A stretch of DNA of 64,000 bases from Planctomycetota bacterium (GTDB lineage: Bacteria; Planctomycetota; UBA1135; UBA2386): contig JAEUHR010000025.1 of the NCBI GenBank assembly GCA_016794425.1, forward strand, positions 155,041 through 219,040. The letters are read 5' to 3'. The notes below the pieces were generated by a model, which was given only the letters and a program-made list of their open reading frames with translations, made no database searches and was not told the origin of the DNA. Made by a program: the position numbers and the translations under genes. Positions 3 through 59,668 of this stretch are shown here, piece by piece. Numbering within the stretch: position 1 is the stretch's first letter; each line of letters opens with the position of its first letter.

Positions 3-419
3 AGCAGCGAGCCGTTCGCGCTGGCCTGGGTGACGCGCCGCAACGCGGCGACCAACGCGGTCGCGATCGGCGGCAACCCGGTGCCGGGCGGCGTCGTGAC
101 CTACCAGTTCTCCGATCCGTACCACCCGAACGGCTCCTACCTGGCGGCGCTGTCGCTGACCGGGTCGCCGGCGACCGTGCCGGTCGGGCCCAACCACGTG
201 TTCGACTTCGGCTTCGACATCGTCACCGAGCTGAGTCTGTCGTTGCCCGGCTTCGCCGGCGTCTACGACGCGAACGGCCAGGCCAGCGCGGTGCTGGCGC
301 TGCCGGACTTCGCCTGGTTGACCGGCTTCCCGGTGCACTGCGCGGTGCTGACGTTCGACGCGCAGGTCCCCGGTGCCGTCGAGGAGACATCGCCGGTCGC
401 GACGTTCGTGATCCAGTGA
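3..419 (+). CDS. 3' part of a gene for an exported protein (5' end outside the window); ends with the recurrent C-terminal module
   Basis: The frame is open from the window edge (SSEPFALAW...) to the stop at 417-419. The tail ...GVYDANGQASAVLALPDFAWLTGFPVHCAVLTFDAQ...SPVATFVIQ has the same layout as the C-termini of the proteins at 40847, 55069, 56382 and 58046. Confidence 0.55.
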   Translation, partial: SSEPFALAWVTRRNAATNAVAIGGNPVPGGVVTYQFSDPYHPNGSYLAALSLTGSPATVPVGPNHVFDFGFDIVTELSLSLPGFAGVYDANGQASAVLALPDFAWLTGFPVHCAVLTFDAQVPGAVEETSPVATFVIQ

Positions 420-10133: not shown

Positions 10134-10861
10134 CCGAACGCCCGCTGCGCGGCGGCAACTGGAGCGTGCAGGAGCTGGAGCGTCTGCGCCTGCTGCTGCC
10201 GCGGCGCGGCGTCGCCGCGACGGCGCTGCTGCTGCGGCGCTCGCCCGAAGCGACCGCGCGCAAGGCGTTGCAGCTGCTGCGCGTGCCACCGCGGCGCGGC
10301 GCGTGGACCGACAGCGACGACGCGCGGCTGCGCGAGGCCTGGGGCGCCGTCGAGCTGCGGCTGCTGGCGCCGATGCTGGGTCGCACGCAGGCCGAAGTCC
10401 GGCGCCGGGCGGTCGAGCTCGGGGCGCGACCGCGCACCGGGCCGTGGACGCGCAGCGAGATCCAGGCGCTGAAGGACCTCTACGGCACGCGCCGCGACGC
10501 CGACCTCGAGGTCTGCCTGCTGCGGCCGGCCGCGGAGATCGCCGCGCGGGCGCGTTCGCTGTGCCTGGCCAAGGACAAGCGCTTCGCCGCGCGCGCCCAG
10601 GCCGCCGAGGCGGCGCCGGTGGCCGCCGTCGCGCGCCTGCGCATGCCGCGCTGGACCCACGCCGAGGAAGCGCGGTTGCGCGAGCTCTACGCCGACCGCG
10701 ACAACCTCGCCGTCGCGCGCGAGCTGGGGCGCACGGTCGCCAGCATCGCCAACAAGGCGAACCTGCTGGGACTCAAGAAGAGCTCCGCGGTCCTGGCCGC
10801 GATCGGCCGCACGAACATCGAAGCGCGCTACGGCCGCGGCGAGGCGGCGGCCGAGCAGTAG
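10130..10861 (+). CDS. Protein with four tandem Myb/SANT-like helix-turn-helix repeats
   Basis: The GTG at 10130 overlaps the ptsI stop (GTGA). Four repeats are spaced about 55 aa apart: GNWSVQELERLRLL, GAWTDSDDARLREAW, GPWTRSEIQALKDLY and PRWTHAEEARLRELY. Each is followed by a short helix ending in a basic stretch. Confidence 0.65.
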   Translation: MTERPLRGGNWSVQELERLRLLLPRRGVAATALLLRRSPEATARKALQLLRVPPRRGAWTDSDDARLREAWGAVELRLLAPMLGRTQAEVRRRAVELGARPRTGPWTRSEIQALKDLYGTRRDADLEVCLLRPAAEIAARARSLCLAKDKRFAARAQAAEAAPVAAVARLRMPRWTHAEEARLRELYADRDNLAVARELGRTVASIANKANLLGLKKSSAVLAAIGRTNIEARYGRGEAAAEQ

Positions 10862-27159: not shown

Positions 27160-27214
27160 GGCGCCGTCTTGCGCCGTCCGGCGGCGCCGCTAAGGGAGGT
27201 CGCGCGGTTCCACG

Positions 27215-28564: not shown

Positions 28565-28577
28565 GCGCCGCCGCGGC

Positions 28578-31253
28578 GTGGCCCTCGCGCTCGCCGCCGG
28601 GCTGGGACTGTTCGCCGCCGTGCCGGCGCAGGAACCCGTCCCGGCGCCGCAGGAACCGCGTCCGCCCGAACCGGCGCCGCAGCCGCCGCCGGTGCGCGTC
28701 GAGGCGCCGCAGGGCCCCGACGTGTTCGTCACCGAGCAGGTGCGTGCGCTGCAGAAGCGGCCGGTGCGCGAGATCCAGTTCCAGCGCCGTGCCGACGACG
28801 GGCCGTTGCAGCCGCTCGACGCGGCGTCGGCGGAGTCGTTCACGCGCAGCCTGCTGACCCGCGTCGGGCAGGAGTTCGAGCAGCGCAAGGTCTCGACCGA
28901 CTGCGTCAACCTGTGGAACGAGCGGCGCATGGTCGTGACCGCCTACGCGATCCCGGTCGACGCCGAGGTCGTGGTGCGGTTCGTCGTCGAGCGTGAGGTC
29001 GAGGTCTACGAGGGCGTCGAGTTCGTCGGCATGAAGAGTCTCGACCGCGCCACGGTCGACGGCCTGCTCGGACTGTCGGCCGACCGGCAGGTGACGCGCA
29101 CCGAAGCCGAGGCGATGCGCAAGGTGCTGCTGTCGCGCTACCGCCGCGACGGCTACGCGTTCTGCAGCATCGACCTCGAGGAACGGCCGGTCGCCGACGG
29201 CGAGCCGATCGACGACCCGAGCGCGCCCGGCGGTCCGCCGCGCGCGCGCGACGTCGCCCGGTTCGTGGTCGACGAAGGGCCGCAGGTGACCGTCGCGGCG
29301 GTGCGGTTCGTCGGCAACGTGTCGTTCGCGGGGGCGCCGCACTTCAACCTGTTCGGCTCCGACAGCTACCTGCTGCGCGACTCGCACATCCTCAGCGACC
29401 CGGCCAGCTTCCTCAGCGGCGGCGCCGCCTACAGCCGCGAGATCCTCGAGGAGGACGTCGACCGGCTGCGCCTGTTCTACCGCAGCCGCGGCTTCCTCGA
29501 CGCCAGCGTCGACATCGCCGACGTTCGCTTCGCCGCCGATCGCGAGTCGGTCGAGATCACGATCGTCGTCGTCGAAGGGCCGCGCTACACGATCGAGGAG
29601 GTCCGCGTCGAACACATCGACGCGAGCGGTCGCGTCCTGACCGAGCCGCCGCGGTACTCCGAGGCCGAGATCCTGGGCGAGTGCAAGGTCGCGCCCGGCG
29701 ACTTCTACGACCACGACCGCCTGCAGCGCGACTGGCAGGCGATCCAGGACTTCTACGGCCGCCGCGGCCACCCGCCGCGCAGCTTCCGCGGCATGGCCGA
29801 CGTGCCGGATGCGTGCACGGTGCTGCCGCCGCGCGAGGTCTACGGCCTCGAACCGAAGGTGCGCATCGTGTTCCAGGTGTTCGAGGGCAAGCCCAAGCGC
29901 CTGCGCGACGTCGTGATCCGCGGCAACCGCTTCACGCGCGACAAGGTGATCCGGCGCCGCGTGCGCGTGCTGCCCGGCGACGTGATCGACATGCAGGAGG
30001 TGAAGCGGGCGCTGCGCAACATCGAGCAGACGCGGTTCTTCCAGGACCCGGTGACGATGCGGACGCCCGAGCTGCGCCTCGAACCGGTTGCTGGCGCCGA
30101 CGACTACCTCGACATCGGCATCGACGTCGAGGACGGCGCCACCGGCGAGCTGCGCTGGGGCATCATGATCGCGCCCGGCACCGGCACGACCGCCTACATC
30201 AGCTACAACAAGCGCAACTTCGACCTCTGGAACCCGCCGAGCAGCGCCAACCCGGCGACCGCGATCGAGGAGATCCTCGACAACCGCGCGTTCCACGGCG
30301 GCGGCCAGAACCTGAACCTGCTGCTCGCGCCGGGCAGCCGCCAGAGCCAGTTCCGCCTGACGTTCGTCGAGCCGGACCTGTTCGTGCAGCACTTCGACAC
30401 GTTCGAGCTGCGTTGGTCGGGCCAGCGGCTGATCCGCCGGCTGCCGGACGGCTACACGTCCGACACGCTCGGCACCGAGATCGGCATCTCGCGCAACTTC
30501 ACCGACAACTTCAACGCCGGCGTGTTCCTGCGCCACGACTCGGTCGAGATCGACGACCTGGCGCCGAACGCGTCGTCGCTGGCGTTCGACGCCGAAGGCC
30601 AGACCGAACTGCGCAGCGGCCGCCTGTCGACGCGCTACCGCGACGTCGACGATCCGTTCCGGCCGACCTCGGGCTTCGAGTTGAGCCTGTCGGCCGAGAT
30701 GGTCGGCGGCTTCCTCGGCGGCGAGGAGAGCCTGAGCAAGATCGAGCACAATGCGCACGTCTACGTGCCGCTGGCCGAGAACGAGATGGGGCACCGCACG
30801 GTGCTGCACCTCGAGCACCGCTTCGGCTGGGCGCAGGCGTTCGGCGGCAGCGACGACGTGTTCCTGACCGAGCGCTTCTACATGGGCGGCTTCAACCTGC
30901 GCGGCCTCGACTACCGGCGCGCCGGCCCGAGCCAGTTCGGCCGGCCGATCGGCGGTGAAGCGCTCTACACCGGCAGCGTCGAAGTGTTCTTCCCGCTGGT
31001 CGCGACGCGCAGCGAAGGCGAGGTCCGCGACCGCGAACTGCTGCGCGGCGTCGTGTTCACGGACTTCGGCCTGCTCGGCCTGTCGATCGACGATCCGACG
31101 TTCGGCGAACTGCGCGCCAGTTCGGGCTTCGGGCTGCGCATCGAGCTGCCGGTGCCCGGCATGGAGCTGCCGATCGCGCTCGACTTCGGCTGGCCGTGGC
31201 AGTTCGAGGAGAGCGACAGCCGGCGCTACTTCTACTGGACGTTCGGGCGATGA
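28578..31253 (+). CDS. bamA: Outer-membrane protein assembly factor BamA (POTRA repeats plus Omp85 barrel)
   Basis: Signal VALALAAGLGLFAAVPAQEP. POTRA-like repeats (IREIQFQ..., VYEGVEFVGMKSL..., VTVAAVRFVGNVSF..., RLRDVVIRGNRFTRDKVIRR). C-terminal barrel (ERFYMGGFNLRGLDYR, FTDFGLLG, SSGFGLRIELPV). The start is GTG 28578; an alternative TTG 28527 would add a basic n-region. Confidence 0.88.
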   Translation: MALALAAGLGLFAAVPAQEPVPAPQEPRPPEPAPQPPPVRVEAPQGPDVFVTEQVRALQKRPVREIQFQRRADDGPLQPLDAASAESFTRSLLTRVGQEFEQRKVSTDCVNLWNERRMVVTAYAIPVDAEVVVRFVVEREVEVYEGVEFVGMKSLDRATVDGLLGLSADRQVTRTEAEAMRKVLLSRYRRDGYAFCSIDLEERPVADGEPIDDPSAPGGPPRARDVARFVVDEGPQVTVAAVRFVGNVSFAGAPHFNLFGSDSYLLRDSHILSDPASFLSGGAAYSREILEEDVDRLRLFYRSRGFLDASVDIADVRFAADRESVEITIVVVEGPRYTIEEVRVEHIDASGRVLTEPPRYSEAEILGECKVAPGDFYDHDRLQRDWQAIQDFYGRRGHPPRSFRGMADVPDACTVLPPREVYGLEPKVRIVFQVFEGKPKRLRDVVIRGNRFTRDKVIRRRVRVLPGDVIDMQEVKRALRNIEQTRFFQDPVTMRTPELRLEPVAGADDYLDIGIDVEDGATGELRWGIMIAPGTGTTAYISYNKRNFDLWNPPSSANPATAIEEILDNRAFHGGGQNLNLLLAPGSRQSQFRLTFVEPDLFVQHFDTFELRWSGQRLIRRLPDGYTSDTLGTEIGISRNFTDNFNAGVFLRHDSVEIDDLAPNASSLAFDAEGQTELRSGRLSTRYRDVDDPFRPTSGFELSLSAEMVGGFLGGEESLSKIEHNAHVYVPLAENEMGHRTVLHLEHRFGWAQAFGGSDDVFLTERFYMGGFNLRGLDYRRAGPSQFGRPIGGEALYTGSVEVFFPLVATRSEGEVRDRELLRGVVFTDFGLLGLSIDDPTFGELRASSGFGLRIELPVPGMELPIALDFGWPWQFEESDSRRYFYWTFGR

Positions 31254-40846: not shown

Positions 40847-43840
40847 TCAGTTCTGCGTGAAGAACGACACGAACGGATTCGACACGACGAACTGCGTCGC
40901 CGCGGCGTCGATCGTCAGCACCTGCGTGTAGGTCAGCGTGCCGAGCGCCGACGGCACGTTCGGCGCGGGGAACGTCGAGAACGACGCGCCGATCGCATTG
41001 GTGGCGCCGCCGATCAGGGCGAGGTTGCCGCCGAGCGCGAACGTCGGGAAGCCCGGCACCGGCGTCGGGCCGGGCGTGTCGCCGATGCCGAGCAGCCACG
41101 GCAGGTTCGGTGCCTGCGTCTGGATCCGCATCGTCACCGTGGAGCCCTGCACCGCCTGCTCCGGCAGCAGCTCGAGTTCGGCGCCGAGCGGCGGCGCGGT
41201 CAGCGTGCCGAGCTGCACGTCGTCGAGGTTCCAGCCGCCGAGCTGTACGCCGTTGTCGGCCACCAGCCGCCACTCGATCTGCACCGACGGGTTGTTGTCG
41301 GCCGACGGGATCGCCAGCTCGAAGTTCGACCAGTTGGTGTCGACCAGGTTGGCGCCGTTGGGGTTCACCCACACCTGCACGCCGTTGACCAGGATGCTCG
41401 CCTGGTCGAACCCGGCGTCCTCGACGGACAGCCAGCGCTTGAAGCGCAGCCGCACGCCGGTGCGGCCCGTGCAGTCGATGACCGGCGAGCGCAGGAAGTT
41501 CTGCGCGTTGGCGGCGTAGGAGCCGTTCCAGTTCGTGGCGCCGATCGGGTTGCCGAGATCGTTGCCGATGCAGAACGCGCCGCGCGGCGCGAAGCCGGGA
41601 TCGGCCCAGGCGATGCCGCTGCTGGTGCCCGAGCGGCCGGCCGGCGCGCCGATCTGCCAGTCGTTCTGCGTCGCGATCTGGCCGTTGGTCCAGCCCGGCG
41701 CCCCGTTCTCGAAGCCCTCGCCGAAGAATGGCTGGAACGTGTCGACGACGTACAGGTAGGTGCCGCTGCGCGGCAGCCGGACGACGGCGCCCGAGTTGTG
41801 CACGGCCTCGAAGTAGTAGGTCATCGTGCCGGAGCCGACGCCGGCCAGCAGGGCGCGGTAGACGTTCGGCGTCGCGGTTGGCTGCATGCGGCGCAGCACC
41901 GGGCCGGTGCCCTTGTTGAAGATCACGCGGACGTCGTTCCACGAGCCGGTCAGCGGCGTCGCGGTCAGCAGCACTTCACGCGGCGTCAATCGCTGGTCGG
42001 TGTCGGCCAGGCCCTGGTGCGCCAGGGTGCCGACCACGACCTCCGGGTAGGGCAGGTTCTTCGCGATCGCGGCGCCGCTGAGCTGCGCGTAGTGCGGCGT
42101 GCCGTTCAGCAGGTTCGCGTCGTCGTCGTCGGCGAGGAACACCTGCAGCACCGCGTTGGTCTGGTTGGTCGCGTTGGCGACGATCGAGCCGATCACGATG
42201 TCGTTCGAGATCGCGATCGCCTGCGGCGTGCCGAACGCCGTGCGCAGCCGCGTGCGCAGGTCCCACGCGAAGCCCATCCAGACCTGGCCGGCCGTGTGCA
42301 CGCCCTGGCCGGTCTGCGGGTAGGTGCGCGAGTTGACGCCGTTGCGCAGCGGCACACCCGGGATTTCGAAGCCGCTGCCGAGCAGGCTGCTGTCGACCAA
42401 GTACATGCCGATGATGTCGCCCCAGCCCTCACTGAGGCCGTCGCCGGTCGTGTTCGAGATGCCGCCGTAGCGGTCGTCGAGGCCGTGGCCCCATTCGTGC
42501 GCGACCACGGTCGAGAAGGCGGTGTTCGCGCAGCCGTTGCCGGCGAGGAAGAAGTTCGTCGTGTTGCCGCCGTAGCTGGCGTTGCAGTTGTTGTTGACGT
42601 TGACGTTGACCGCGATGTTGTCGGCGGTGTTCAGCTGTGCGGTGTTGCCGAGGATCGAGCGCGACCACTCGTTGACCAGGTCGATCCAGTAGGCCGCCGT
42701 CGTGTGCGCGGCCTGGTCGGAGGTCGCCGCGGCCGACAGCAGCTGGATCGTCGCCGGCACGCCCGGGTCGACCTGCACGCTGGCGGACGGCGCGCTGCTG
42801 CCCGCGATCAGTGCGTGGTGGGTGCCGTCGAGACCGTTGATGTTGATCACCACCGGCGCGGCGATGTCGATCGAGAACTGGCCGTTGGCGTCGGTCGTGC
42901 GCGTGCCGACCCCCGGCACGTTGACGACGATGTTGCGCAGCGGGGTGTTCACGAGGGCGCTCTGGCCGTCGTTGCCGGTGCGCGTCCACGCCATCAGCGT
43001 GACCGTCGTCGCCACCGGCAGCGGCAGCGGCGCAGCCGTGCTGGCGGCGGCTGCCGGCGCCGGCGTCGGCGCCGCGGCGATCGACTCGAACCGCGCGTGC
43101 GCCGCATTGCGGCAGCTGGCGTAGCCGCACTCGTGCCGGTCGTTCCGGTAGTGCAGCACCGCGCCGGTCTTCGCGTCGACGTAGTAGCGGCCCATCGCGC
43201 CGTCGGCGCCGAGGCTCCGCACCGGCACTTCCCAGGCCAGGAACACCGGCGCCAGCTGCGGCGCGTCGATGTCACCCCAGATGCACAGCTGCGCTGCGCC
43301 GGGGCGCACGGCTGCGCCGGCGGCCTGCGGGGAGAACGCCTCGATGGCGATCGCGGTCGCCAGCTCGTCACCGAGCGCCGGGCCGGTGTCGAAGTCGGCC
43401 GGGATCGGGAAGGCGCGGCTGCCCAGCATCGACACGGCGCCGCGCATGTGGATGCGGAAGTCGATGCGGCCCTCGATGACCGGCAGGCCGCGGAACGACT
43501 GCGCGTAGGTCAGCGACCAGGTGCGGCCCATGCGCGCGCCGATCTCCTCGTGGAAGTCCGAGGCGCCGGTGCCGAGCAGCGTCGCGTACTGCTGCAGCAG
43601 CAGCTGCGCCTGCCGGCGCGCCTCGTCCAGCGAATTGGCGCGCCAGTCTGCGAGCGGCAGGCCGGGGCCGTAGATCACGCTCGGCGTGCCGGTCGCGGCA
43701 TGCCACTGCGCGACCCACTGGTTGCCGGACTGTTCCTGCAGCCGTTGGAATGCGGCCTGGGGCCCGGCAGCGAGCGTCGGGTCCTGGGCGGGGAGGGACA
43801 GTGCGAGCAGAACGCCGGCACCAAGTGCGTGGATACGCAT
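40847..43840 (-). CDS. Secreted zinc metalloprotease (FTP/PepSY propeptide, HExxH catalytic domain of M36/M4-like type, large C-terminal extensions)
   Basis: Signal MRIHALGAGVLLALSLPAQD. Propeptide-like RTWSLTYAQSFRGLPVIEGRIDF and GRYYVDAKTGAVLHYRN. Zinc site VVAHEWGHGLDDRYGG with downstream GLSEGWGDIIG. The C-terminus carries the recurrent module (...LGTLTYTQVLTIDAAATQFVVSNPFVSFFTQN). Confidence 0.8.
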   Translation of the reverse strand: MRIHALGAGVLLALSLPAQDPTLAAGPQAAFQRLQEQSGNQWVAQWHAATGTPSVIYGPGLPLADWRANSLDEARRQAQLLLQQYATLLGTGASDFHEEIGARMGRTWSLTYAQSFRGLPVIEGRIDFRIHMRGAVSMLGSRAFPIPADFDTGPALGDELATAIAIEAFSPQAAGAAVRPGAAQLCIWGDIDAPQLAPVFLAWEVPVRSLGADGAMGRYYVDAKTGAVLHYRNDRHECGYASCRNAAHARFESIAAAPTPAPAAAASTAAPLPLPVATTVTLMAWTRTGNDGQSALVNTPLRNIVVNVPGVGTRTTDANGQFSIDIAAPVVININGLDGTHHALIAGSSAPSASVQVDPGVPATIQLLSAAATSDQAAHTTAAYWIDLVNEWSRSILGNTAQLNTADNIAVNVNVNNNCNASYGGNTTNFFLAGNGCANTAFSTVVAHEWGHGLDDRYGGISNTTGDGLSEGWGDIIGMYLVDSSLLGSGFEIPGVPLRNGVNSRTYPQTGQGVHTAGQVWMGFAWDLRTRLRTAFGTPQAIAISNDIVIGSIVANATNQTNAVLQVFLADDDDANLLNGTPHYAQLSGAAIAKNLPYPEVVVGTLAHQGLADTDQRLTPREVLLTATPLTGSWNDVRVIFNKGTGPVLRRMQPTATPNVYRALLAGVGSGTMTYYFEAVHNSGAVVRLPRSGTYLYVVDTFQPFFGEGFENGAPGWTNGQIATQNDWQIGAPAGRSGTSSGIAWADPGFAPRGAFCIGNDLGNPIGATNWNGSYAANAQNFLRSPVIDCTGRTGVRLRFKRWLSVEDAGFDQASILVNGVQVWVNPNGANLVDTNWSNFELAIPSADNNPSVQIEWRLVADNGVQLGGWNLDDVQLGTLTAPPLGAELELLPEQAVQGSTVTMRIQTQAPNLPWLLGIGDTPGPTPVPGFPTFALGGNLALIGGATNAIGASFSTFPAPNVPSALGTLTYTQVLTIDAAATQFVVSNPFVSFFTQN

Positions 43841-44063
43841 GGATCCTGATCCAGAGGGGAAACGAGCCGGTTGGGGACCGGACGGCGATGGGAATGGGCT
43901 CGGCGGGGCGACCGAACGCGTGGTGGAGCAGGCGTGGCCAGTATGCGGTTCCGCCGCGGCGGGTCAACCACCGGCGCCCGGCCGCGCCCGGGCCGATGTC
44001 ATCGCGACTTCCCGCGGGCGGAAAATCCTGCACCCGCAGCGGCCGTTCGCGGATTCTGGCCGT

Positions 44064-44576
44064 GTGCACGCCGTGCGCAGCATCACCGAAGCCGACGTGA
44101 CCCGCCTCGTGCAACAGCACCAGGCCGAGGTCTGGCGCTACCTGCGCTTCCTCGGCGCATCGGCCGAGCTCGCCGACGACCTGACCCAGGAGGCGTTCCT
44201 GCAGCTGCTGCGCGCGCCGTTCGAGGAACGCACCCCCGCGGCGACCGCGGCCTGGCTGCGCACGGTGGCGCGCAACGCGTACGTGAAGGCGTTCCGGCGG
44301 CCGCCGTTCGAGCTGGCCGAGCTCGACGAGATCGAGGCGGTCTGGACCGGGTTCGCCGGCGCCGACGCGGGGCAGCAGGCACTCGACCGGCTGCGGCTCT
44401 GCCTCGAGCGGCTCGACGGCCGCGCGCGCGACGCAGTGCGGCTGTGCTACGAAGAGCGGCGGTCGCGCCGCGAGATCGGCGATCGGCTCGGCATCGGCGA
44501 CGACGGCGTCAAGTCGCTGCTGCGGCGCACGCGCGCGGTGCTGCGCGCCTGCGTCGAACGCGCGGAGGGTGCATGA
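44064..44576 (+). CDS. ECF-type RNA polymerase sigma-70 family factor
   Basis: Region 2 LVQQHQAEVWRYLRFLGASAELADDLTQEAFLQL. Region 4 RDAVRLCYEERRSRREIGDRLGIGDDGVKSLLRRTRAVLR. The start is GTG 44064 or 44073. Confidence 0.85.
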   Translation: MHAVRSITEADVTRLVQQHQAEVWRYLRFLGASAELADDLTQEAFLQLLRAPFEERTPAATAAWLRTVARNAYVKAFRRPPFELAELDEIEAVWTGFAGADAGQQALDRLRLCLERLDGRARDAVRLCYEERRSRREIGDRLGIGDDGVKSLLRRTRAVLRACVERAEGA

Positions 44577-46234
44577 CCGACTGGGGCGATCGATGGGTCG
44601 ACGGCGCGCTGCAGGAGCTGCACGGCAGCCGGCCGCCGGATCTGTCGGCGCGCGTGCTGCTGGCGCTCGGCGAACCGGCGCGCGGCACGCTGCCGAAGCT
44701 CGAGCCGCCGCGCCGCACGGTCGGCCTGCGCTGGGCGCTGGCGTCGGCGGCACTGGTGCTGGTCTCGGTGCTGACCGGCGCGCTGCTGTCGCGCTCTGGC
44801 GCGCCGGTCGCAGAGCGCGTCGTGCAGGTCGATCTGACCGTGCACACGGGCTCGCTCGAGTGCGTCGAGGTCGAGCAAGGCGCTGTGCGCCGTTCGCAGA
44901 GCGCGGCCGGGTCGCGGGTGTCGTTCGCCGCCCGCGCCGGCAACCGGCTGCTCACGGCGGCGCCGTGTCGTTTCCAGGTCGGCCCGTACGGCGAACTCGC
45001 CACCGGTCCGGCCACCGAGTTGGAGGTGAGGCAGATGAGCGTCAGTTGGCAACAGGGAGTCGTGGCCGCGTCGTCGTTGACGATCGCGGTGGTCGCCGGG
45101 GTCGTCACCTGGCATTCGCTGCAGCAGTCCGGCACCGCACGCGCCGGCGAGACCGTGCAGCTCGACGCCGGGCCGCGCGGTGAGCAGGCGGTCGCCAGCG
45201 CGGCCGAGATCGAACGGCTGCGGCAACGCGTGCAGCAGCTCGAACAGCAGAACCAGGATCTGCAACTGCAGGCGACGCGCACCGCCGCCGAGGCGCCGCC
45301 GCTAGCCGCCGCCGCGGTGGAGCCCGAGCCCGCGCCCGCACCGGTGCAGACTGCCGCGGTGTTCGCCGACGAGCGCTACGCCGACCTGCTCGCGAAGCTC
45401 GACTGGCGCACGATGGGCGAGGTCACGCACGAGATGGGGCCGATGCTGGTCGACCTGGTCCAGCGCATGCAGGAGACCGGCGAGCTGCCGATGGACCTCG
45501 CGGCCAAGGTCGGCGCGCTGAACATGAAGCTCGTGCAGCAGGTGCCGGCGCTGATGGAGTCCGGCCTGCCCGGCAGCGGCCCGAACGGCGCCTACACGCA
45601 CCCGCTGGTGTCGGCGAACATCCTCGCGACGACACTCGACGCCGCCGGGCTGGCGATGGACCAGGGCCAGCGCGACCGCATCGCCGGGCTCGTGCGCCAG
45701 TTCTCGATCGAGACGCAAGCGGCGATGGACTCGGTGCAGGAGTTCGACCTGCAGAAGCTCGGGCTCGAGGCCGAGACCAAGGACCGCTTCTACCGCGAGG
45801 TCTCGTCGCTGCTGACGCCCGAGCAGCAGCGCGTCATGTTCCCGGACGGCGCCGATCGCTACGACGGCGCCAGCCTGTTCCACTCGAGCCTGTTCACGCG
45901 GCAGTTCGTCGACGGCGTGTCGGCCGCCAACCCGGCCGAGTTCGCGCGGTCGGTGGCCGGCGACGTCGGTGAGCACCTCGGCCTCGACGACCAGGCCAGC
46001 AGCCAGGTGCGCGCGATCGTCGAGCGGCTCGGTGCCGCGCCGGAGCTGTGGCAGGACCGCGCCGACGAGATCGAGCGCGGCCAGCTGCACATGCTGAAGC
46101 GCGGCCGCGTCGACGTGGCGCTGCGGCACCAGGTCGCGATCCTGCAGGAGATCGTGCGCACGGTGCCGATGAGCGCGGCGCAGAAGAAGAAGCTGCTGTC
46201 GATGAAGCGCATCTTCGTGCCGCTGCCGAAGTGA
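44573..46234 (+). CDS. Putative anti-sigma factor / membrane protein with a large periplasmic domain
   Basis: The ATG at 44573 overlaps the sigma-factor stop (ATGA). It has a short cytoplasmic N-terminus, one TM span (LRWALASAALVLVSVLTGALL), a coiled coil (EIERLRQRVQQLEQQNQDLQLQ) and a helical C-terminal domain. The function is inferred from position only. Confidence 0.6.
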   Translation: MTDWGDRWVDGALQELHGSRPPDLSARVLLALGEPARGTLPKLEPPRRTVGLRWALASAALVLVSVLTGALLSRSGAPVAERVVQVDLTVHTGSLECVEVEQGAVRRSQSAAGSRVSFAARAGNRLLTAAPCRFQVGPYGELATGPATELEVRQMSVSWQQGVVAASSLTIAVVAGVVTWHSLQQSGTARAGETVQLDAGPRGEQAVASAAEIERLRQRVQQLEQQNQDLQLQATRTAAEAPPLAAAAVEPEPAPAPVQTAAVFADERYADLLAKLDWRTMGEVTHEMGPMLVDLVQRMQETGELPMDLAAKVGALNMKLVQQVPALMESGLPGSGPNGAYTHPLVSANILATTLDAAGLAMDQGQRDRIAGLVRQFSIETQAAMDSVQEFDLQKLGLEAETKDRFYREVSSLLTPEQQRVMFPDGADRYDGASLFHSSLFTRQFVDGVSAANPAEFARSVAGDVGEHLGLDDQASSQVRAIVERLGAAPELWQDRADEIERGQLHMLKRGRVDVALRHQVAILQEIVRTVPMSAAQKKKLLSMKRIFVPLPK

Positions 46235-52351: not shown

Positions 52352-55072
52352 ATGCCGACCGTCGCCTCGTTGGTAGTGCCGTTCGTTCTCGCCGCCGTCG
52401 CCGTTGCGCAGGTGCCCGAGCCCGACGCGGCGCCGAAGCCGCTGCCGTTCGCGCCGGGCGTGACCTACGACCCGGCGATCCCGACGCTCGAACAGGTCAC
52501 CGGCCACGCGCCGGGCGCCGAGGTCAGTTCGCACGCCGACGTCGAACGCTACCTGCGCGCGCTGGCGGCGGCGTCGCCGCGGATCCGGCTGGTCGACTAC
52601 GGCGCCAGCTGGGAGGGGCGCACGTTGTGGTACGCGATCGTCGGCGCGCCGGTGCAGGTCGCGCGCGCCGGCGAGATCCAGGCGGCGATGCAGCGGCTCG
52701 CCGATCCGCGCGGCATGCAGGACGGCGACGTCGAGGCGCTGATCGCTGACCTGCCGGCGGTGGGCTGGCTCGCCAACTGCGTGCACGGCGACGAGCCGTC
52801 GGGAACCGACGCGGCGCTGCTGGTGCTCTACCACCTGCTGGCGGCGCAGAACGACCCGGTGGTCGACAAGGTGCTCGCCGAGTGCCTGGTGCTGATCGAT
52901 CCGCTGCAGAACCCCGACGGCCGCGACCGCTTCGTGCACTCGACGCGGGCCGCGCGCGGCCGCTTCGCCGATGCGACGCCGCTCGGCGCCGAACACAGCC
53001 AGCCGTGGCCGGGCGGCCGCAGCAACCACGCGCTGTTCGACATGAACCGCGACTGGTTCGCGCTGTCGCAGCCGGAGACGCAGGCGCGCGTGCGGGCGTT
53101 CCTGGCCTGGTGGCCGCTGGTCTACGTCGACCTGCACGAGATGGGCGGCGACTCGACCTACTACTTCCCGCCGCCGGCCGCGCCGGTGCACGGCGAGATC
53201 ACCGCCGGCCAGCGCGCGTGGCTGTCGCGCTACGGCCGCAACAACGCGCGCTGGTTCGACCGCTTCGGCTTCGACTACTTCACGCGCGAGGCCTACGACT
53301 CGTTCTACCCCGGCTACGGCGAAGGCTGGCCGACCTTCCACGGCAGCATCGGCATGACGTTCGAGATGGCGAGCGCGCGTGGGCTGGTGTTCCGCCGCCG
53401 CGACGACAGCCTGTTGTGGTACCGCGACGGCGTGCACCGGCACTTCGTCGCGTCGATGGCGACGCTCGAGACGCTGGCGAACGGCCGCGCCGAGGCGCAG
53501 CGGTCGTTCGTGCAGCACCGCCGCGCCGGCATCGCGCGCGGCGAGGCGGGGCCGATCAAGGAATACGTGTTCCCCGACACCGGCGATCGCACGCGGCTGG
53601 CGCGGCTCGCCAACCTGCTGCTGGCGCAGGGCATCGAGGTCCAGCGCGCCACCGGCGAGCTGCGCGCCAGCGCGGTGCCGCTCGGCCGGCCCGCGGCCGA
53701 GGCCGGCGACCGCACGTTCGCGGCCGGCGCCTACGTCGTGTCGCTGGCGCAGCCGGCCAGCACGCTGGCGCACGTGCTGCTCGAGCCGCACTTCGACATG
53801 GACCGAGCGTTCGTCGACGAACAGAAGCGGCGCGAGGCGCGTCGGCTCGGCACCGAGTTCTACGACCTGACCGCGTGGTCGCTGCCGCTGCTGTTCGGTG
53901 TCGAAGCGTGGGCGACCACGGCCGTCGCGACCGGCGACCGCGCGCCGCTCGGCGTCGGTGCGGCGGCCAGCGGCGCCGCGCCGCTGCGTGCACAGCCGCC
54001 GCAGGTCGCCTACGTGGTCGCGTGGGGCCAGAACGGCGCCGCGGCGCTGCTGGCCGAACTGCTGCGGCTGGGCGTCAAGGTGCGGAGCCTCGACCGCGCG
54101 TTCACGCTCGACGGCGTCGAGTATCCGGCCGGCTCGTACGTGATCCGCGTGCACGACCAGCCCGACGGCCTGCACGCGCGGCTCGCGCAGCTGGCGGCGG
54201 CGCACGGCGTCACGCCGTACTGCGCCGACAGCTCGTGGATCGAGCAGGGCATCAGCCTCGGCAGCGGCCACGCGCTGGCGCTGAAGGTGCCGCGCGTCGT
54301 GATGGCGTGGGACCGGCCGGTCAACCCGTACTCGGCCGGTTGGGTGCGCTACCTGCTCGAGCAGCGCTACGGCGTGCCGGTGACGCCGGTGCGCACGCAC
54401 CAGCTCGACGACGTCGAACTCGACCGCTTCACGGTGCTGATCCTGCCCGAGGCCGACGGCTACGGCCGCGCGCTCGGCGAGCGCGGCATCGCGGCGGTCA
54501 AGGGCTTCGTCGAACGCGGCGGCGTGCTGGTCACGTTCGGCTCGGCGACGCGCTGGTTGTGCGAGAAGGAGGTCGGCCTGCTGGCCAGCGAGGCCGAGCC
54601 GCGCGTGAAGCCGGAGGCGCCGAAGCCGAAGGCGAACGACGCGGCCGACGCGGCACCCGAGGCGAAACCCGACGCGCCGTTCGACTACGGCAAGGCGATC
54701 CGGCCCGACAAGGAAGCGCCGCCGGCCGTGCCGGGCGCGATCCTGCGCGTCACCGTCGACCCGGACCACTGGCTCGGTTTCGGCTACCGCGGCAGCGCCA
54801 ACGTCGTGCACGACTCGAGCCACGTGTTCACGCCGGTCAAGCTCGACCGCGGCACCAACGTCGCGATCTACGCCGAGGCCGAGCAACTGGTGCTGGCCGG
54901 TTTCGTCTGGGACGAGAGCCGGCGGCTCTTGCCGCAGAAGGCGTTCCTCGTGCACCAGCCGCACGGCAAGGGCCACGTCGTCGCGTTCGCCGAGGATCCC
55001 AACGTGCGGGCGTTCGCCGACGGGCTCAACCTGTTCCTGCTGAACGCGGTGCTGCTGACCGCCGGCCGCTAG
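52352..55072 (+). CDS. M14-family zinc carboxypeptidase with a long C-terminal extension (906 aa)
   Basis: Signal MPTVASLVVPFVLAAVAVAQ. The zinc/catalytic region LANCVHGDEPSGTDAALLVLYHL...LIDPLQNPDGRDRF...DLHEMGG fits HxxE...NPDG...H of M14. The C-terminal two-thirds are unassigned. Confidence 0.85.
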   Translation: MPTVASLVVPFVLAAVAVAQVPEPDAAPKPLPFAPGVTYDPAIPTLEQVTGHAPGAEVSSHADVERYLRALAAASPRIRLVDYGASWEGRTLWYAIVGAPVQVARAGEIQAAMQRLADPRGMQDGDVEALIADLPAVGWLANCVHGDEPSGTDAALLVLYHLLAAQNDPVVDKVLAECLVLIDPLQNPDGRDRFVHSTRAARGRFADATPLGAEHSQPWPGGRSNHALFDMNRDWFALSQPETQARVRAFLAWWPLVYVDLHEMGGDSTYYFPPPAAPVHGEITAGQRAWLSRYGRNNARWFDRFGFDYFTREAYDSFYPGYGEGWPTFHGSIGMTFEMASARGLVFRRRDDSLLWYRDGVHRHFVASMATLETLANGRAEAQRSFVQHRRAGIARGEAGPIKEYVFPDTGDRTRLARLANLLLAQGIEVQRATGELRASAVPLGRPAAEAGDRTFAAGAYVVSLAQPASTLAHVLLEPHFDMDRAFVDEQKRREARRLGTEFYDLTAWSLPLLFGVEAWATTAVATGDRAPLGVGAAASGAAPLRAQPPQVAYVVAWGQNGAAALLAELLRLGVKVRSLDRAFTLDGVEYPAGSYVIRVHDQPDGLHARLAQLAAAHGVTPYCADSSWIEQGISLGSGHALALKVPRVVMAWDRPVNPYSAGWVRYLLEQRYGVPVTPVRTHQLDDVELDRFTVLILPEADGYGRALGERGIAAVKGFVERGGVLVTFGSATRWLCEKEVGLLASEAEPRVKPEAPKPKANDAADAAPEAKPDAPFDYGKAIRPDKEAPPAVPGAILRVTVDPDHWLGFGYRGSANVVHDSSHVFTPVKLDRGTNVAIYAEAEQLVLAGFVWDESRRLLPQKAFLVHQPHGKGHVVAFAEDPNVRAFADGLNLFLLNAVLLTAGR

Positions 55073-56175
55073 CGCACGATGCCGCCGACGACCGGTGCGA
55101 CCTGCCACGGGAAGGTCGGTTCGACCGTGATCGCCTGCAGCCACAGCGGCGTGTCGACGAACTGGCCCGCCGGCAGGTTCCAGCTGGCGCCGGCGGCGCC
55201 GGTGGCGTCGGTGGCGTAGAGGCCGACGAACCAGGCCGTCGCCAGGTCGAGCTGCAGCGGCTGCTCGAACAGCGCCGGCAGCGCGGTCGTCGCGACACCG
55301 GGGCTCGCGTGCAGCGCGACGAACTGGAACGGGGCGCCCTGGAACTGCAGCGAGTAGGTGGCACCGCTCTGCAATGGCGATGGCGCGTGGACGCCGAGCA
55401 GCGTCGGTCCGGGTGCCGACGTCGCGCAGTTGGTCGCGGTCGTCGGCGACAGCGTGCAGCGCTCGTAGCGCACGGTCGAGCCGATGGCGACGATCGGGCA
55501 CTGGCTCGGACCGGCCTCGATCGTCGAGTCGCTGAGCCAGACCGCGCTGCCCGCGGTGGCGAAGATGCCGAGGCCGCCACTGAACGCGTCGACCGGGAAC
55601 GAGCAGCCGCTGGCGACGAACTGCGAACCGATCAATCGCACGGCGACCGGCGCGAAGAACGCGCCCGCAGCCGTGAACGACGTGTCGACTGCGGTCAGGT
55701 GCGTGTTCTCGGCCTGCGTGCCGACCTGGCCGAAGGCCGTGGAGCCGAACAGCGAGGTCAGCGCGCAACCGACGAGGTGCACGCTGCAGTCCTTCGCCGA
55801 CAGCGCCGGATTGGTACCGCCGAACGCGGGCAGGATGGTGCAGTGGGACAGCGTCACCCGGCCCGAGCGGACGTCGACCGAGCCGGTGAAGGTCACGCCG
55901 TCGACGTGCAGGTTCTGGCCGGGCGGCACGTTCCAGGACGGTGGCGTCATGTGCTGCACCTGGACCGTGCCCAAGGCGCGGATCGTGACGCCGATGTCGG
56001 CGTCGATGGCCTCGGCATAGCTGCCGGGCTGGACCAGCAGCACGTCGCCGGGCGCTGCGGCCGCGAGCGCGGCTGCGAACGTGGCAAAGCCACCGGGGCC
56101 GACGAGGTGCGTCGTTTGCGACGGCAGAGCGACGGTGGTGGCGAAGAGCAGACAGCAGGTGAAGGGGCAGCGCAT
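55069..56175 (-). CDS. Secreted right-handed beta-helix (pectate-lyase-fold-like) protein with the recurrent C-terminal module
   Basis: The start MRCPFTCCLLFATTVALPSQ is at 56175. Repetitive short strands with Cys/Gly turns (VTFTGSVDVRSGRVTLSHCTI, CSVHLVGCAL, LIGSQFVASGCSF, VWLSDSTIEAG). C-terminus ...YATDATGAAGASWNLPAGQFVDTPLWLQAITVEP.... Its stop shares the palindrome CTAG (55069-72) with the M14 stop. Confidence 0.65.
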   Translation of the reverse strand: MRCPFTCCLLFATTVALPSQTTHLVGPGGFATFAAALAAAAPGDVLLVQPGSYAEAIDADIGVTIRALGTVQVQHMTPPSWNVPPGQNLHVDGVTFTGSVDVRSGRVTLSHCTILPAFGGTNPALSAKDCSVHLVGCALTSLFGSTAFGQVGTQAENTHLTAVDTSFTAAGAFFAPVAVRLIGSQFVASGCSFPVDAFSGGLGIFATAGSAVWLSDSTIEAGPSQCPIVAIGSTVRYERCTLSPTTATNCATSAPGPTLLGVHAPSPLQSGATYSLQFQGAPFQFVALHASPGVATTALPALFEQPLQLDLATAWFVGLYATDATGAAGASWNLPAGQFVDTPLWLQAITVEPTFPWQVAPVVGGIVR

Positions 56176-56381
56176 GGGTGGATTCGGGCGAGTCAGCCGA
56201 CGGGCGCGGTGCTGCAAGCAGCAGGCCACGCACTTCCACTCGCGCGCCGGGACGGTACGCGGCTCGGACCGCCACCGCAACCAGCCGGCACCGCGCGCGG
56301 CGTCTGCCCGCGAAGCGGCGGAATCCGCGAACGCAACGGTCGACCGGTCCGCTGCTCGGACGGAGGCGCCGCGCACCACCC

Positions 56382-57998
56382 ATGAAGAGACTACCGTCCG
56401 GCTTCCTGTTCCTGCTCGCAGCGGCTGCGCTGCCTGGCCCGGTGGCGGCCCAACTGGTCGGTTCCGCGTTCCAGGTGGCCGCCGGCACCACGCTCGAGCA
56501 TCCGGCGGTCGCCTACGGCGCCGGTTCGGGCAATCAGTACCTGGTCGTCTGGCTCGCCCCGACCGCGACCACGACCGCCGAGCTGCGTGGGCAGTTCGTC
56601 GGTTTCGCCGGAACGCCGACCGGCGCGCCGTTCGTGATCGAGGCCGCCGTCGACCGCGCCGTGCCGCCCGCGCTCTGCCACGTGCGGCGGACCGACGAAT
56701 TCGTGGTCGGCTACCGCCGCCGCGCGCTCGGCACGTTCTCGGACACCAATTGGTATGTGCGGACCATCGCCGCCGCGGGCGGTGCGGTCTCGAACCGCGA
56801 AGTGGTGCCGTTCGACGCGGCGACCACCGGCGAACTGACCGAACTGGTGCTCGGCGGCGACGCGCGCGTGCTGCTGCTCTTGCCGGACGATCGGGCGCTG
56901 CTGGTCGTGCGGCGCGCCGGTCCGACCGGCGGGCAGCCGTCGATTGCGTACGCGCTGGTGACCACGCTCGGTGCCGATCCGGTGGTCGGCACGTTCACGA
57001 CGCTCTCGTCGCCGGGCGTGCCGGTCGGCGACATCGCAGTGACCGAACGCGCCGGCGACGAGTTCGCCGGCCACTGGCTCGTCGTGTGGTGCCAGAGCGT
57101 GGGGCTGTCGCCCTTCACCAGCGTGCGCGGACGCCTGGTCGACACCGACGGCGTCGCGTGCGGGGCGTCGACGACGCTGCACACCGGGCTCGTGTCGGTG
57201 CGCAATCCGACCGTCGCGGTGCGCGACACCGACGAGTTCGCGGTGGCGTGGGAACACGGCGCCGACATCCGCGTGCGCTCGGTCGCGTTCACCGGCACCT
57301 GCGCGGCACCGGCGTTCACGCTCGGCACGACCGTCGATCCGACCTCCGGCACCGACAACAGCGAGCCCGCGCTGGCGTTCGCGCGCGACAAGTTCCTGCT
57401 GGCGTGGCGGCGCTCGCCGACGCCGTTCCCGGCCGGCATCCTGGTGCGCGGCCTCGATCCGGACGCATGCATCGCCTGCGGCCAGGAGTGGGCGCCGTCC
57501 TATCCGGTGGCAGCCCAGGGGCAGCCGGCGCTCGGCGCACGCTACGCGGCCGGCGACCTGACCAGCGACGAAGCGCTCACGGTCTGGGCCGACGGCGCGA
57601 TCGTGGCGCGGCGGTTCGAGGCGATGGCCGAGGACCTCGTGCTCAACCTCGGCGGCGGCTGCACCAACACCGGCTACGCCAACGCCGCGACGCACGACGG
57701 CGAGTGCGTGATCGGCAACGACAGCTTCCGGCTCGTGCTCGGTGCGCCGACCGTGCCGGCGCTGGCGCTGATCGTCGGCTTCAGCGCGATCTCGTTCCCG
57801 TGCGGCGCGTGCACGATCGTGCCGTCGCCGGACCTGCTGCTGCCCGGCGCCACGCCGACCACGGTGCCGATCCCGTGCGACACGATGCTGATCGGCACCC
57901 ACCTGTGGTCGCAGTGGCTGCTGCTGAAGCCGAGCACGTGCCCGCTGCTGCCCGACTTCTCGTTCACCAACGCGCTGCGCTTCACGATCGGCGAATGA
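56382..57998 (+). CDS. Secreted Cys-rich repeat protein of unknown function, tandem paralog A (538 aa)
   Basis: ATG 56382. Signal MKRLPSGFLFLLAAAALPGPVAAQ. Recurrent blade-like motifs (YLVVWLAP, FVVGYRR, ALLVVRR, WLVVWCQ, FAVAWEH, FLLAWRR, ALTVWAD). C-terminal module GGGCTNTG...CGACTIVPS...PCDTMLIGTHLWSQWLLLKPSTCPLLPDFSFTNALRFTIGE. Confidence 0.75.
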   Translation: MKRLPSGFLFLLAAAALPGPVAAQLVGSAFQVAAGTTLEHPAVAYGAGSGNQYLVVWLAPTATTTAELRGQFVGFAGTPTGAPFVIEAAVDRAVPPALCHVRRTDEFVVGYRRRALGTFSDTNWYVRTIAAAGGAVSNREVVPFDAATTGELTELVLGGDARVLLLLPDDRALLVVRRAGPTGGQPSIAYALVTTLGADPVVGTFTTLSSPGVPVGDIAVTERAGDEFAGHWLVVWCQSVGLSPFTSVRGRLVDTDGVACGASTTLHTGLVSVRNPTVAVRDTDEFAVAWEHGADIRVRSVAFTGTCAAPAFTLGTTVDPTSGTDNSEPALAFARDKFLLAWRRSPTPFPAGILVRGLDPDACIACGQEWAPSYPVAAQGQPALGARYAAGDLTSDEALTVWADGAIVARRFEAMAEDLVLNLGGGCTNTGYANAATHDGECVIGNDSFRLVLGAPTVPALALIVGFSAISFPCGACTIVPSPDLLLPGATPTTVPIPCDTMLIGTHLWSQWLLLKPSTCPLLPDFSFTNALRFTIGE

Positions 57999-58045
57999 GC
58001 CGGCGCCGCGGCGATCGTCGACCGTCCGGATCCACGGTACTTCCC

Positions 58046-59668
58046 ATGAACCTCTTCGCATCCTGCCGTCTCGCCGCGTTCGCGCTGTCGTGCGTGGCAC
58101 CTCTCGCCGCGCAACTGGTCGGGCCGCCGTTCCAGGTCAGCGTGCACGGGTCCGTGCGTGACCACGCGGTCGCGTTCGACAACGCCGCGCAGCGCTACCT
58201 GGTGGTCTACTCGGTGCCGACCGGGGCCACGACCGCCGAGATCTACGGCCAGTTCCTGTCCACGACCGGCGGTGCGTTCGGCTTCCCGGTGCTGATCGAA
58301 GCCGATGCCGACCTCGCGGTGCCGCCGGTGGTCTGCAACGTGAACCGCACCGACAAGTTCGTCGTCGGCTACCGCCGCAACTTCACCGCCGGCACGATCC
58401 CGGTCAGCGACACGAACTGGTACGTGCGCACGCTCGTCTTCGGTGCGGTCTCCAACCGCGAACTGGTGCCGTTCGACGCCTCGACCACGGGGCCACTGAC
58501 CGAACTAGTGCTCGGCGGCGATGCGCGCCACGACCCGTTCCAGGGCAACGACCATCGCGCGCTGCTGGTCGTGCGCCGCGCCGGCTCGGCCAGCGCGCTG
58601 CACTCGATCGCGTACGCGCTGGTCGACACGTCGGGCGCCGATCCGGTGCTGGGCGCGTTCACGACGCTGACCACGCCCGGGCTGCAGTTCGGCGACCTCG
58701 CGGTGACCGCGAACGCCGGCACGCTGGCCCCGGAGGTCGGCCGCTGGCTCGTCGTCTGGTGCCAGGGTGGTCTGTCGGGGTCGTACACGCAGGTGCGCGG
58801 CCGGCTGGTCGACACGCTCGGCGCCGTCTGCGGGCCGGTGGCCACGCTGTGGTCCGGCAGCACGCCGGTCGCGCGTCCGTCGGTCGCCGGCCGCACGGCC
58901 GCCGAGTACGCGGTCGCCTGGGAACAGGACGACGACGTTCGCGTGCGGACCGTCACGGTGGTCGGTGCCTGCGGCGCCAACACGTTCGCGACCGGCGACG
59001 TCGTCGACCCGACGTCCGACGGCGACAATTCGCACGCGGCACTCGTGCGCGGCCGGGAGAAGTACCTGCTCGCCTGGCGCCACTCGACCGCGTTCCTGCC
59101 GTCGACGGTGCTCGTGCGCGGCCTCGACCCGGCGACCTGCACCGTGTGTGGCCAGGAATGGGTGCTCGAGTACGACGACACGGCGCAGGCCACGCCGGCC
59201 GTGGTCGCCCGCGCGAGTGCGAACGACTTCGCCAGCCGCGAAGCGGTGGTCGTCTGGCGACAGGGCTCGGTGCGCGGTCGCTACGTCGAGACGATCGGCA
59301 ACGACCTCGTCGTCGACGTCGGCGGCGGCTGCACCGACACCGGTTTCGCGAACACCGCGTCGTGGTCCAGCGAAGCCGTGATCGGCAACCCGAACTTCCT
59401 GCTGACGATCGCGACGCCGACCGTGCCGGTGCTGGCGCTGATCGTCGGCCTGTCGTCGGTGAACCTGTCGTGCGGCAGCTGCACGCTGGTGCCGTCGCTC
59501 GACTTCGTGCTGCCCGGCGCGTCGCCGACGATCTTCGCGCTGCCGTGCGACCCGCTGCTGATCGGCGCCAACCTGTGGTCGCAGTGGCTGCTGTGGAAGC
59601 CCAGCGACTGCCCGATCCTGCCGGACTTCGCGTTCTCGAACGCGCTGCGGTTCACGATCGGCGAGTGA
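58046..59668 (+). CDS. Secreted Cys-rich repeat protein, tandem paralog B (540 aa)
   Basis: ATG 58046. Signal MNLFASCRLAAFALSCVAPLAAQ. It is collinear with paralog A along its whole length, and the last roughly 50 aa are nearly identical (...PCDPLLIGANLWSQWLLWKPSDCPILPDFAFSNALRFTIGE). Confidence 0.75.
   Translation: MNLFASCRLAAFALSCVAPLAAQLVGPPFQVSVHGSVRDHAVAFDNAAQRYLVVYSVPTGATTAEIYGQFLSTTGGAFGFPVLIEADADLAVPPVVCNVNRTDKFVVGYRRNFTAGTIPVSDTNWYVRTLVFGAVSNRELVPFDASTTGPLTELVLGGDARHDPFQGNDHRALLVVRRAGSASALHSIAYALVDTSGADPVLGAFTTLTTPGLQFGDLAVTANAGTLAPEVGRWLVVWCQGGLSGSYTQVRGRLVDTLGAVCGPVATLWSGSTPVARPSVAGRTAAEYAVAWEQDDDVRVRTVTVVGACGANTFATGDVVDPTSDGDNSHAALVRGREKYLLAWRHSTAFLPSTVLVRGLDPATCTVCGQEWVLEYDDTAQATPAVVARASANDFASREAVVVWRQGSVRGRYVETIGNDLVVDVGGGCTDTGFANTASWSSEAVIGNPNFLLTIATPTVPVLALIVGLSSVNLSCGSCTLVPSLDFVLPGASPTIFALPCDPLLIGANLWSQWLLWKPSDCPILPDFAFSNALRFTIGE

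Follow-up and report, generated by a model that had tools for sequence, protein, structure and literature searches.

Exported proteins encoded in a 64,000-nucleotide stretch of a Planctomycetota genome (assembly GCA_016794425.1, contig JAEUHR010000025.1, positions 155,041 to 219,040; hereafter the window, with a G+C content of 72.5%) share a C-terminal domain. The superfamily formed by these tails is very probably real. We interpret it as a C-terminal beta-sandwich cargo domain, with the cargo role offered as a hypothesis. The domain would be a single-copy, immunoglobulin (Ig)-like sandwich at the end of Sec-exported proteins that acts as a common handle for sorting or anchoring, in the manner of type IX secretion system (T9SS) C-terminal domains (CTDs). 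We assign this reading a probability of about 0.5.

The original prediction was that five otherwise unrelated exported proteins of the window carry the same terminal module. Their coordinates and reading frames are correct and the proteins end as described, all five tails finishing no more than a few residues before the stop. Two are tandem paralogs on the forward strand, paralog A (56382-57998, 538 aa) and paralog B (58046-59668, 540 aa), each with a tail formed by the last 121 aa (57633..57995 and 59303..59665, respectively). The paralog A tail is of a cysteine-rich subtype with the pattern GGGC...CGxC...C...C. Encoded on the reverse strand are an M36-type metalloprotease (40847-43840, 997 aa), the last 117 aa of which (40850..41200) are of a cysteine-free subtype, and a beta-helix-like protein (55069-56175, 368 aa), whose C-terminal ~110 aa (55072..55401) are a possible member. 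The fifth is a 5'-truncated open reading frame (ORF) on the forward strand, which is cut off by the left edge of the window and has its stop at 419; its tail (57..416) is a probable member. Four of the five proteins have exact matches at NCBI, listed as 'hypothetical proteins' of a Planctomycetes metagenome-assembled genome (MAG) (JNL08_09525, _09530, _09535 and _09490), all encoded on a contig of 223,543 bp. A shared module is firm for paralog A, paralog B and the M36 tail and probable for the truncated ORF. The count of five unrelated carriers has to be reduced, because paralogs A and B are related over their full length (56% identity by BLASTP), and so represent one observation rather than two, and the beta-helix tail is unproven.

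Homology between the tail types was established with an 'intermediate' hidden Markov model (HMM) made from eight tails encoded in flanking DNA, with no A/B-type or M36-type sequence among them. The passengers of these eight tails comprise Rax2/DUF5122 propeller, FG-GAP, Exo_endo_phos, M12B, M28 and M36 domains. Against a database of 2182 six-frame ORFs, the model matched paralog A at E=1.8e-7, paralog B at E=1.1e-5, the M36 tail at E=5.8e-5 and the truncated ORF at E=0.021. When compared with the intermediate profile by hhalign, paralog A reached a probability of 92% over 113 columns, and the M36 tail one of 88%. The A/B-type and M36-type profiles also align with each other (hhalign, P=1.5e-4), in register across the C-terminal half. 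An iterative hmmsearch seeded with the A/B profile was run on 2334 sequences, most of them six-frame ORFs that form an internal negative set. An M36-type tail entered in round 1 (E=0.0036) and the window M36 tail in round 3 (E=1.4e-4). At convergence there were 202 matches, all at the C-termini of real ORFs except for two pseudogene-associated pieces, one a frameshifted piece of a tail gene and the other a decayed partial tail upstream of the second gene of contig L003. From these profile comparisons, we conclude that the tails of paralog A, paralog B and the M36 protein are one superfamily, which takes in three of the four independent tail types when the probable truncated ORF is included.

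The tails of the window were of little help by themselves. Pairwise similarity, by which the original prediction proposed to be judged, was significant only for paralog A versus paralog B, and BLASTP detected none among the five tails otherwise. Nor did HMMs built from the window tails generalize: a profile of three of the four tail types did not recover the omitted one (ranks 12 to 322 of 448 ORFs). Searches with jackhmmer from single tails (truncated ORF, beta-helix and M36) gave no matches in the relatives' loci. Word-indexed protein searches are nearly blind to the family, with one match for the M36 tail, four for the paralog A tail and, for a 60-sequence profile, 17 that are mostly M36-type fragments. 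No Pfam or NCBIfam model matches any of the five window tails. An antisense ORF in L003 (1685-2749, reverse strand) reached E=0.0018 against the eight-tail profile and has further matches among the antisense ORFs of the tail-coding regions in the window. Thus, E-values near 1e-3 are no proof by themselves.

The truncated ORF matches an HMM of intermediate and M36-type tails at E=4.5e-4. In hhalign it aligns with the profile of the same tails over 91 columns (P=1.1e-4, score 29.8). This score lies about 10 standard deviations above those of 200 composition-matched control segments taken from passenger regions (mean 10.0, standard deviation 2.0, maximum 16.6), and we consider the tail a probable member of the superfamily. 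The beta-helix tail is never detected by any HMMER profile, and sub-clustering of the superfamily for sharper profiles brought no gain. Its hhalign alignment covers 35 columns only, ATDATGAAGASWNLP...PLWLQAITVE, corresponding to the TDxxG...P...Q segment, with P=0.006-0.011. The best of these alignments (P=0.006, score 20.6) scores above 200 of the 200 controls, and with two other profiles the tail scores above 99% of them. This tail was chosen by eye for that very motif from among ~40 C-termini, so its P values of 0.006-0.011 fail multiple-testing correction. We regard its membership as doubtful, at somewhat less than even odds.

The domain is ~110-125 residues long and present in one copy, at the extreme C-terminus in essentially every case. 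In an alignment of 60 superfamily sequences the only near-invariant columns are those of P-x6-G-x5-Q, each conserved in at least 90%. The P, G and Q are all present in paralog A, paralog B and the M36 tail. In most subtypes a TDxxG turn precedes this motif; it is absent from paralogs A and B. The near-invariant columns are the core of the motif in the original prediction. The truncated ORF has P-x6-G and a TDxxG-like 'YDANG' with the conserved Q replaced by A or C, and the beta-helix tail has T in place of the conserved G.

An AlphaFold2 model of the M36 tail, run with 17 relatives, was obtained with high confidence (predicted local distance difference test, pLDDT, 90.9; predicted template modelling score, pTM, 0.79). 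It shows 11 beta strands in 117 residues, arranged as an Ig-like sandwich. The last strand is formed by residues 110-115 of 117, so the final residues of the protein belong to the fold. The turn that links strands 7 and 8 contains TDxxG, the loop from strand 8 to strand 9 contains P-x6-G, and Q is in the middle of strand 9; the residues 'SN' directly precede the last strand. The invariant position at the extreme C-terminus that had been predicted is absent; the endings vary (FTIGE, FTQN, FVIQ, GIVR), and the conserved residues lie inside the sandwich. Foldseek searches of the PDB with the M36 model returned generic Ig-like domains only (best E 1.3e-3, TM-scores <=0.6), including those of LILR, PECAM, RbmA and an S-layer protein, and accessory domains of lytic polysaccharide monooxygenases.

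The 60 superfamily tails have no matches in Pfam or NCBIfam, and neither the superfamily profiles nor the beta-helix protein nor paralog A had any match in sequence searches of the PDB. Searches of the literature turned up no account of a domain of this kind in Planctomycetota. By these sequence searches the family is uncatalogued, having neither a Pfam or NCBIfam model nor a sequence relative among solved structures. It is fast-evolving and has so far been found only in uncultured Planctomycetota.

Relatives of the A/B-type tail are numerous. Scored against 1.84 billion representative proteins, its profile matched 427 (E<=1e-3); of these, 59 reached E<=1e-10 and 28 reached E<=1e-30. Among 152 representative proteins there are 135 in which only 0-2 residues separate the end of the match from the C-terminus; the remaining cases are incomplete alignment ends, fragments, a decayed gene remnant or one spurious repetitive protein. 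Matches with a named organism are all from Planctomycetota MAGs, among them an assembly labelled 'uncultured candidatus Brocadiaceae bacterium'. A genome scan located nine loci. Among them are arrays of as many as seven paralog A-like genes in tandem, every one of which encodes the tail. The A/B subtype has conserved cysteines at GGGC and CGxC and two more, a sequence pattern that fits disulfide bonds in an exported protein.

A metagenome scan with the M36 tail identified 17 loci, of which 15 encode M36 orthologues and two encode more distant proteins. All 15 orthologues have the same tail, ending 0-2 residues before the stop codon. Their identity to the window protein is 42-59% in the tail and 44-57% over the whole protein. 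The two distant proteins are an M28 peptidase (L026, 3-1808) and a divergent M36 peptidase (L027, 426-3539). Both have a pre-tail region of at least ~290 aa in common with the window M36 protein, but tails of other subtypes, which points either to faster evolution of the tail than of the passenger or to a tail swap. C-terminal placement, as originally predicted, is thus borne out by relatives of both types.

Signal peptides on the carriers were likewise correctly predicted. We called them from the sequence and from hydrophobicity maxima. Signal-peptide-like N-termini are present in all four complete window proteins, where they end in PAQ, AAQ or PSQ, and in 69 of 92 full-length relatives. The predicted signal peptide of paralog A (56382..56453, forward strand) reads MKRLPSGFLFLLAAAALPGPVAAQ, with a hydrophobic maximum of 2.8 in the first 40 aa. 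Those of paralog B (58046..58114, forward; MNLFASCRLAAFALSCVAPLAAQ), the M36 metalloprotease (43784..43840, reverse; MRIHALGAGVLLALSLPAQ) and the beta-helix-like protein (56116..56175, reverse; MRCPFTCCLLFATTVALPSQ) have maxima of 2.35, 2.40 and 2.31, respectively. The prediction that the passengers are unrelated also holds across the relatives. Carriers include at least seven unrelated kinds, namely M36, M28 and M12B peptidases, Exo_endo_phos, Rax2/DUF5122 propeller and FG-GAP proteins, and the paralog A family. Judging by these sequence families, all are plausible extracellular enzymes or adhesins.

Unrelated passengers, signal peptides and a terminal module together make up the architecture expected of a sorting domain. 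Carriers are also frequent, with 3-5 among ~40 genes (a crude gene call) in 64 kb and several more in every flanking region. In the mechanism that we propose, Sec would export the carrier through its N-terminal signal peptide, and the folded C-terminal sandwich, in which the last strand is formed by the final residues of the protein, would act as a common handle. A lineage-specific apparatus would then recognise this handle and either transfer the cargo across the outer membrane or fix it on the cell surface, after which the handle may be removed. Recognition by machinery and any cleavage are inferences, as is the sorting or anchoring role itself; for this role the architecture is the evidence, and we put it slightly below even odds. 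A more specific form of the idea is that the domain is the cargo tag of an undescribed Planctomycetota sorting pathway, in which a system for outer-membrane export or surface attachment would recognise the sandwich on perhaps 100 or more Sec-exported proteins per genome, and which would have arisen independently of the Bacteroidota T9SS. The terminal position in single copy, the unrelated passengers, the signal peptides and the high frequency of carriers speak for a cargo tag in general; the more specific form we consider rather unlikely.

Several observations weigh against a role as a sorting or anchoring handle. The conserved residues are in turns and loops, with the Q in a strand, and thus have a structural look, unlike that of a motif for cleavage or recognition. 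The tails of a single genome diverge too far for pairwise detection. Within one genome, a single model readily picks out T9SS CTDs or PEP-CTERM tags, and a shared receptor would be expected to keep its recognition residues more constant than these tails show. No sortase-like or secretion machinery genes were identified among the nine window genes scanned, which have housekeeping functions only (e.g., Omp85/BamA, DnaB and M14 carboxypeptidase). Most of the 150 best database matches to the A/B profile have a paralog A-type passenger, so the case for modularity comes from about ten proteins encoded in flanking DNA. Membership of the beta-helix tail is not demonstrable. Finally, the paralog A tail gave an AlphaFold2 model of low confidence (six sequences, pLDDT 46), and the confident model represents one subtype only.

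The main rival reading is that the tail is an ordinary accessory Ig-like domain that functions in adhesion, substrate or glycan binding, oligomerisation or capping of the passenger, and that is terminal by descent or gene fusion rather than through any need for a free C-terminus, with no sorting machinery involved. The generic nature of its Foldseek relatives, the structural appearance of its conserved residues, the extreme divergence among the tails of one genome and the lack of machinery genes among the nine scanned are all consistent with this. So is the finding that in orthologue groups the tail tracks its passenger, with similar identities in the tail and over the whole M36 protein. However, Big, PKD, fn3, CARDB and similar accessory domains are usually found in internal positions and in tandem as well, whereas the planctomycete domain is single and terminal in essentially every case. 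Enzymes acting on unrelated substrates (three protease clans, a nuclease/phosphatase family) and propellers argue against one ligand tied to catalysis, and an incidence of 3-5 genes per 64 kb is very high. We consider the accessory-domain reading unlikely, although it is the one with which the handle reading chiefly has to contend.

An intramolecular chaperone or PPC-like domain could also explain why secreted M36, M28 and M12B peptidases end in a small beta-sandwich. It would aid the folding of the passenger, or keep it inactive during export, and then be clipped off, with no targeting role. The C-terminus of secreted peptidases is the classic setting of PPC domains (PF04151). The tail is found equally on proteins that are not peptidases (Exo_endo_phos, FG-GAP, propellers and the paralog A family), and Pfam PPC matches neither the five window proteins nor the 60 tails, which makes this explanation improbable. 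Least probable, in our judgement, is that there is no homology at all, and that beta-rich, Ala/Gly/Pro/Thr-rich C-termini of a genome with 72% G+C were united by a pattern match. In its favour are the insignificant pairwise BLASTP and window-only leave-one-out results, the selection of tails by eye from ~40 C-termini, the failure of the beta-helix tail after multiple-testing correction and the antisense ORF that reached E=0.0018 in the same search. For paralog A, paralog B and the M36 tail, chance is excluded by the independent profile (E 1.8e-7 to 5.8e-5) and by hhalign probabilities of 88-92%, and the matches are all in register at the C-terminus. The truncated ORF, with its 91 aligned columns and a score ~10 standard deviations above the 200 controls, also argues against it.

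Paralog A-like genes occur in tandem arrays, with two genes in the window (56382-59668) and seven consecutive genes in a contig of a related MAG (L001, 1307-15062). The passenger of this family is ~420-620 aa long and has a recurring motif, '[VI]A[YW]D...[YF]L[VI]VW'; it has no match in Pfam, NCBIfam or the PDB. One member of the L001 array (9726-10486) is split into two overlapping ORFs of 106 and 161 aa. The second of these (P0005) has an N-terminal stretch that does not align with other tails, followed by an intact tail, and the split gene is probably a frameshifted pseudogene. In L003, the next paralog A-like gene has upstream of it a decayed half-tail (…NPYTLAIPCDATLVGVDLCTQWLLLKPSTCPILPDFSFTSAWKFTIGE) at ~2300-2470, which is not followed by a stop codon and reads through to the start of that gene; it looks like a gene remnant.

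The metalloprotease scores just above the cut-off of the Pfam M36 model PF02128 (24.5 bits versus 23.3), matching at residues 443-481 only, and has the HExxH motif in the sequence VVAHEWGHGL. Directly upstream of its tail is a MAM-like domain (41213..41560, reverse strand), with a weak match to Pfam InhA-like_MAM. The NCBIfam 'choice-of-anchor J' model NF038128 scores 12.5 bits with the whole protein and 18.1 bits (E=0.0024) with the excised region; the excised domain of an orthologue scores 22.5 bits (E=1.1e-4). The latter two alignments span profile positions 15-162 of 162 and are below the curated cut-off of 30 bits. Judged by these scores, the domain is a probable distant relative of choice-of-anchor J rather than a curated member. 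A gene for an extracytoplasmic function (ECF) sigma-factor-like protein and a large downstream ORF (43674-46234) are divergent from the adjoining M36 gene, and homologues of both (66% and 50% identity) lie beside the M36 orthologue in contig L015.

The beta-helix fold of the protein encoded at 55069-56175 is suggested by a single match, to NosD in NCBIfam (E=0.09). Opposite its gene is an antisense ORF (55469-56020, forward strand) with a G+C content at third codon positions (GC3) of 0.94, as high as that of real genes. A simple GC3 gene call placed the beta-helix gene on the wrong strand and missed paralog B. Abutting the beta-helix gene is a gene for an M14 carboxypeptidase (52352-55072, 906 aa) that has a signal peptide and no tail. 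Its homologue, with 64% identity, adjoins an M36 orthologue in L020 (3-1376). A role of the carboxypeptidase as a tail-processing enzyme is not supported, as its recurrence beside the M36 gene is ordinary synteny and nothing ties it to the tails. Elsewhere in the window, an Omp85/BamA-type protein with POTRA repeats is encoded beside DnaB (28347-31253 and 27194-28564). It has no evident tie to the tails, and its presence confirms a diderm envelope.

To our knowledge, the transport of planctomycete enzymes across or onto the outer membrane is poorly understood. A shared C-terminal domain provides a handle for predicting the secretome of uncultured planctomycetes, a query for phylogenetic profiling of the machinery and a candidate tag for reporter experiments. 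Even if the domain is accessory only, the family is sizeable, with 427 representative clusters in one subtype, and a profile would annotate many 'hypothetical proteins'.

The original prediction compared the tails with T9SS CTDs and PEP-CTERM-type tags, and by sequence neither assignment holds: no model matches, and there is neither a membrane helix nor a basic cluster. Like exosortase-dependent PEP-CTERM, sortase-dependent LPXTG, rhombosortase-dependent GlyGly-CTERM and myxosortase-dependent MYXO-CTERM tags, the domain is strictly C-terminal and is found on many unrelated exported proteins of one lineage. Unlike these tripartite signals of ~20-30 aa, in which a short motif is followed by a membrane helix and then a basic cluster, it is a folded domain of ~115 aa. 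The last 60 aa contain no membrane helix (the most hydrophobic 19-mer has a Kyte-Doolittle value of 0.9-1.4), the four complete window proteins have no basic cluster at the C-terminus, and NCBIfam sorting-signal models match neither the window proteins nor the 60 tails. A tag of the PEP-CTERM or LPXTG type is ruled out by the missing helix and basic tail.

PPC domains resemble the tail in being small beta-sandwiches at the C-terminus of secreted metallopeptidases. They differ in that they can occur in tandem, whereas the planctomycete domain is single, and the latter is also found on Exo_endo_phos, FG-GAP and propeller proteins. The lack of a Pfam match and the carriers that are not peptidases rule out assignment to PPC.

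The closest likeness is to T9SS cargo, which also combines a Sec signal peptide, an unrelated passenger and, at the extreme C-terminus, a single Ig-like sandwich whose last strand consists of the final residues. As in that system, the passengers are often proteases, nucleases or adhesins and there are many cargo genes per genome. The CTD of RgpB, a T9SS cargo protein, is a seven-stranded Ig-like beta-sandwich of ~65 residues, the last of which are required for export (PMC4804311). In contrast, the planctomycete domain is larger, with ~115 aa and 11 predicted strands. T9SS CTD structures are absent from the 50 best Foldseek matches of the M36 tail, and the planctomycete tails within one genome differ from each other far more than T9SS CTDs do. 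The T9SS CTD models (Pfam PF18962 and TIGR04183 for type A, TIGR04131 for type B) match neither the five proteins (E<=1) nor the 60 tails (E<=0.1), and membership by sequence is ruled out on this basis. No components of the T9SS machinery (PorU, which cleaves the CTD, PorV, Sov and PorK-N) were found among the nine genes scanned in the 64-kb window. The papers located describe the T9SS as confined to Bacteroidota; the host here is a member of the Planctomycetota.

A further comparison is offered by the M36 peptidases. NCBIfam has three M36 families that are defined by myxosortase-, rhombosortase- and T9SS-dependent C-termini, and the window metalloprotease scores far under their cut-offs. The name 'choice-of-anchor' denotes domains that stand beside alternative C-terminal anchors, and the likeness to choice-of-anchor J concerns the pre-tail domain of the M36 protein, not the tail itself. 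Taken together, the existence of sorting-dependent M36 families and the probable choice-of-anchor J relative upstream of the tail place the planctomycete domain where sorting signals sit.

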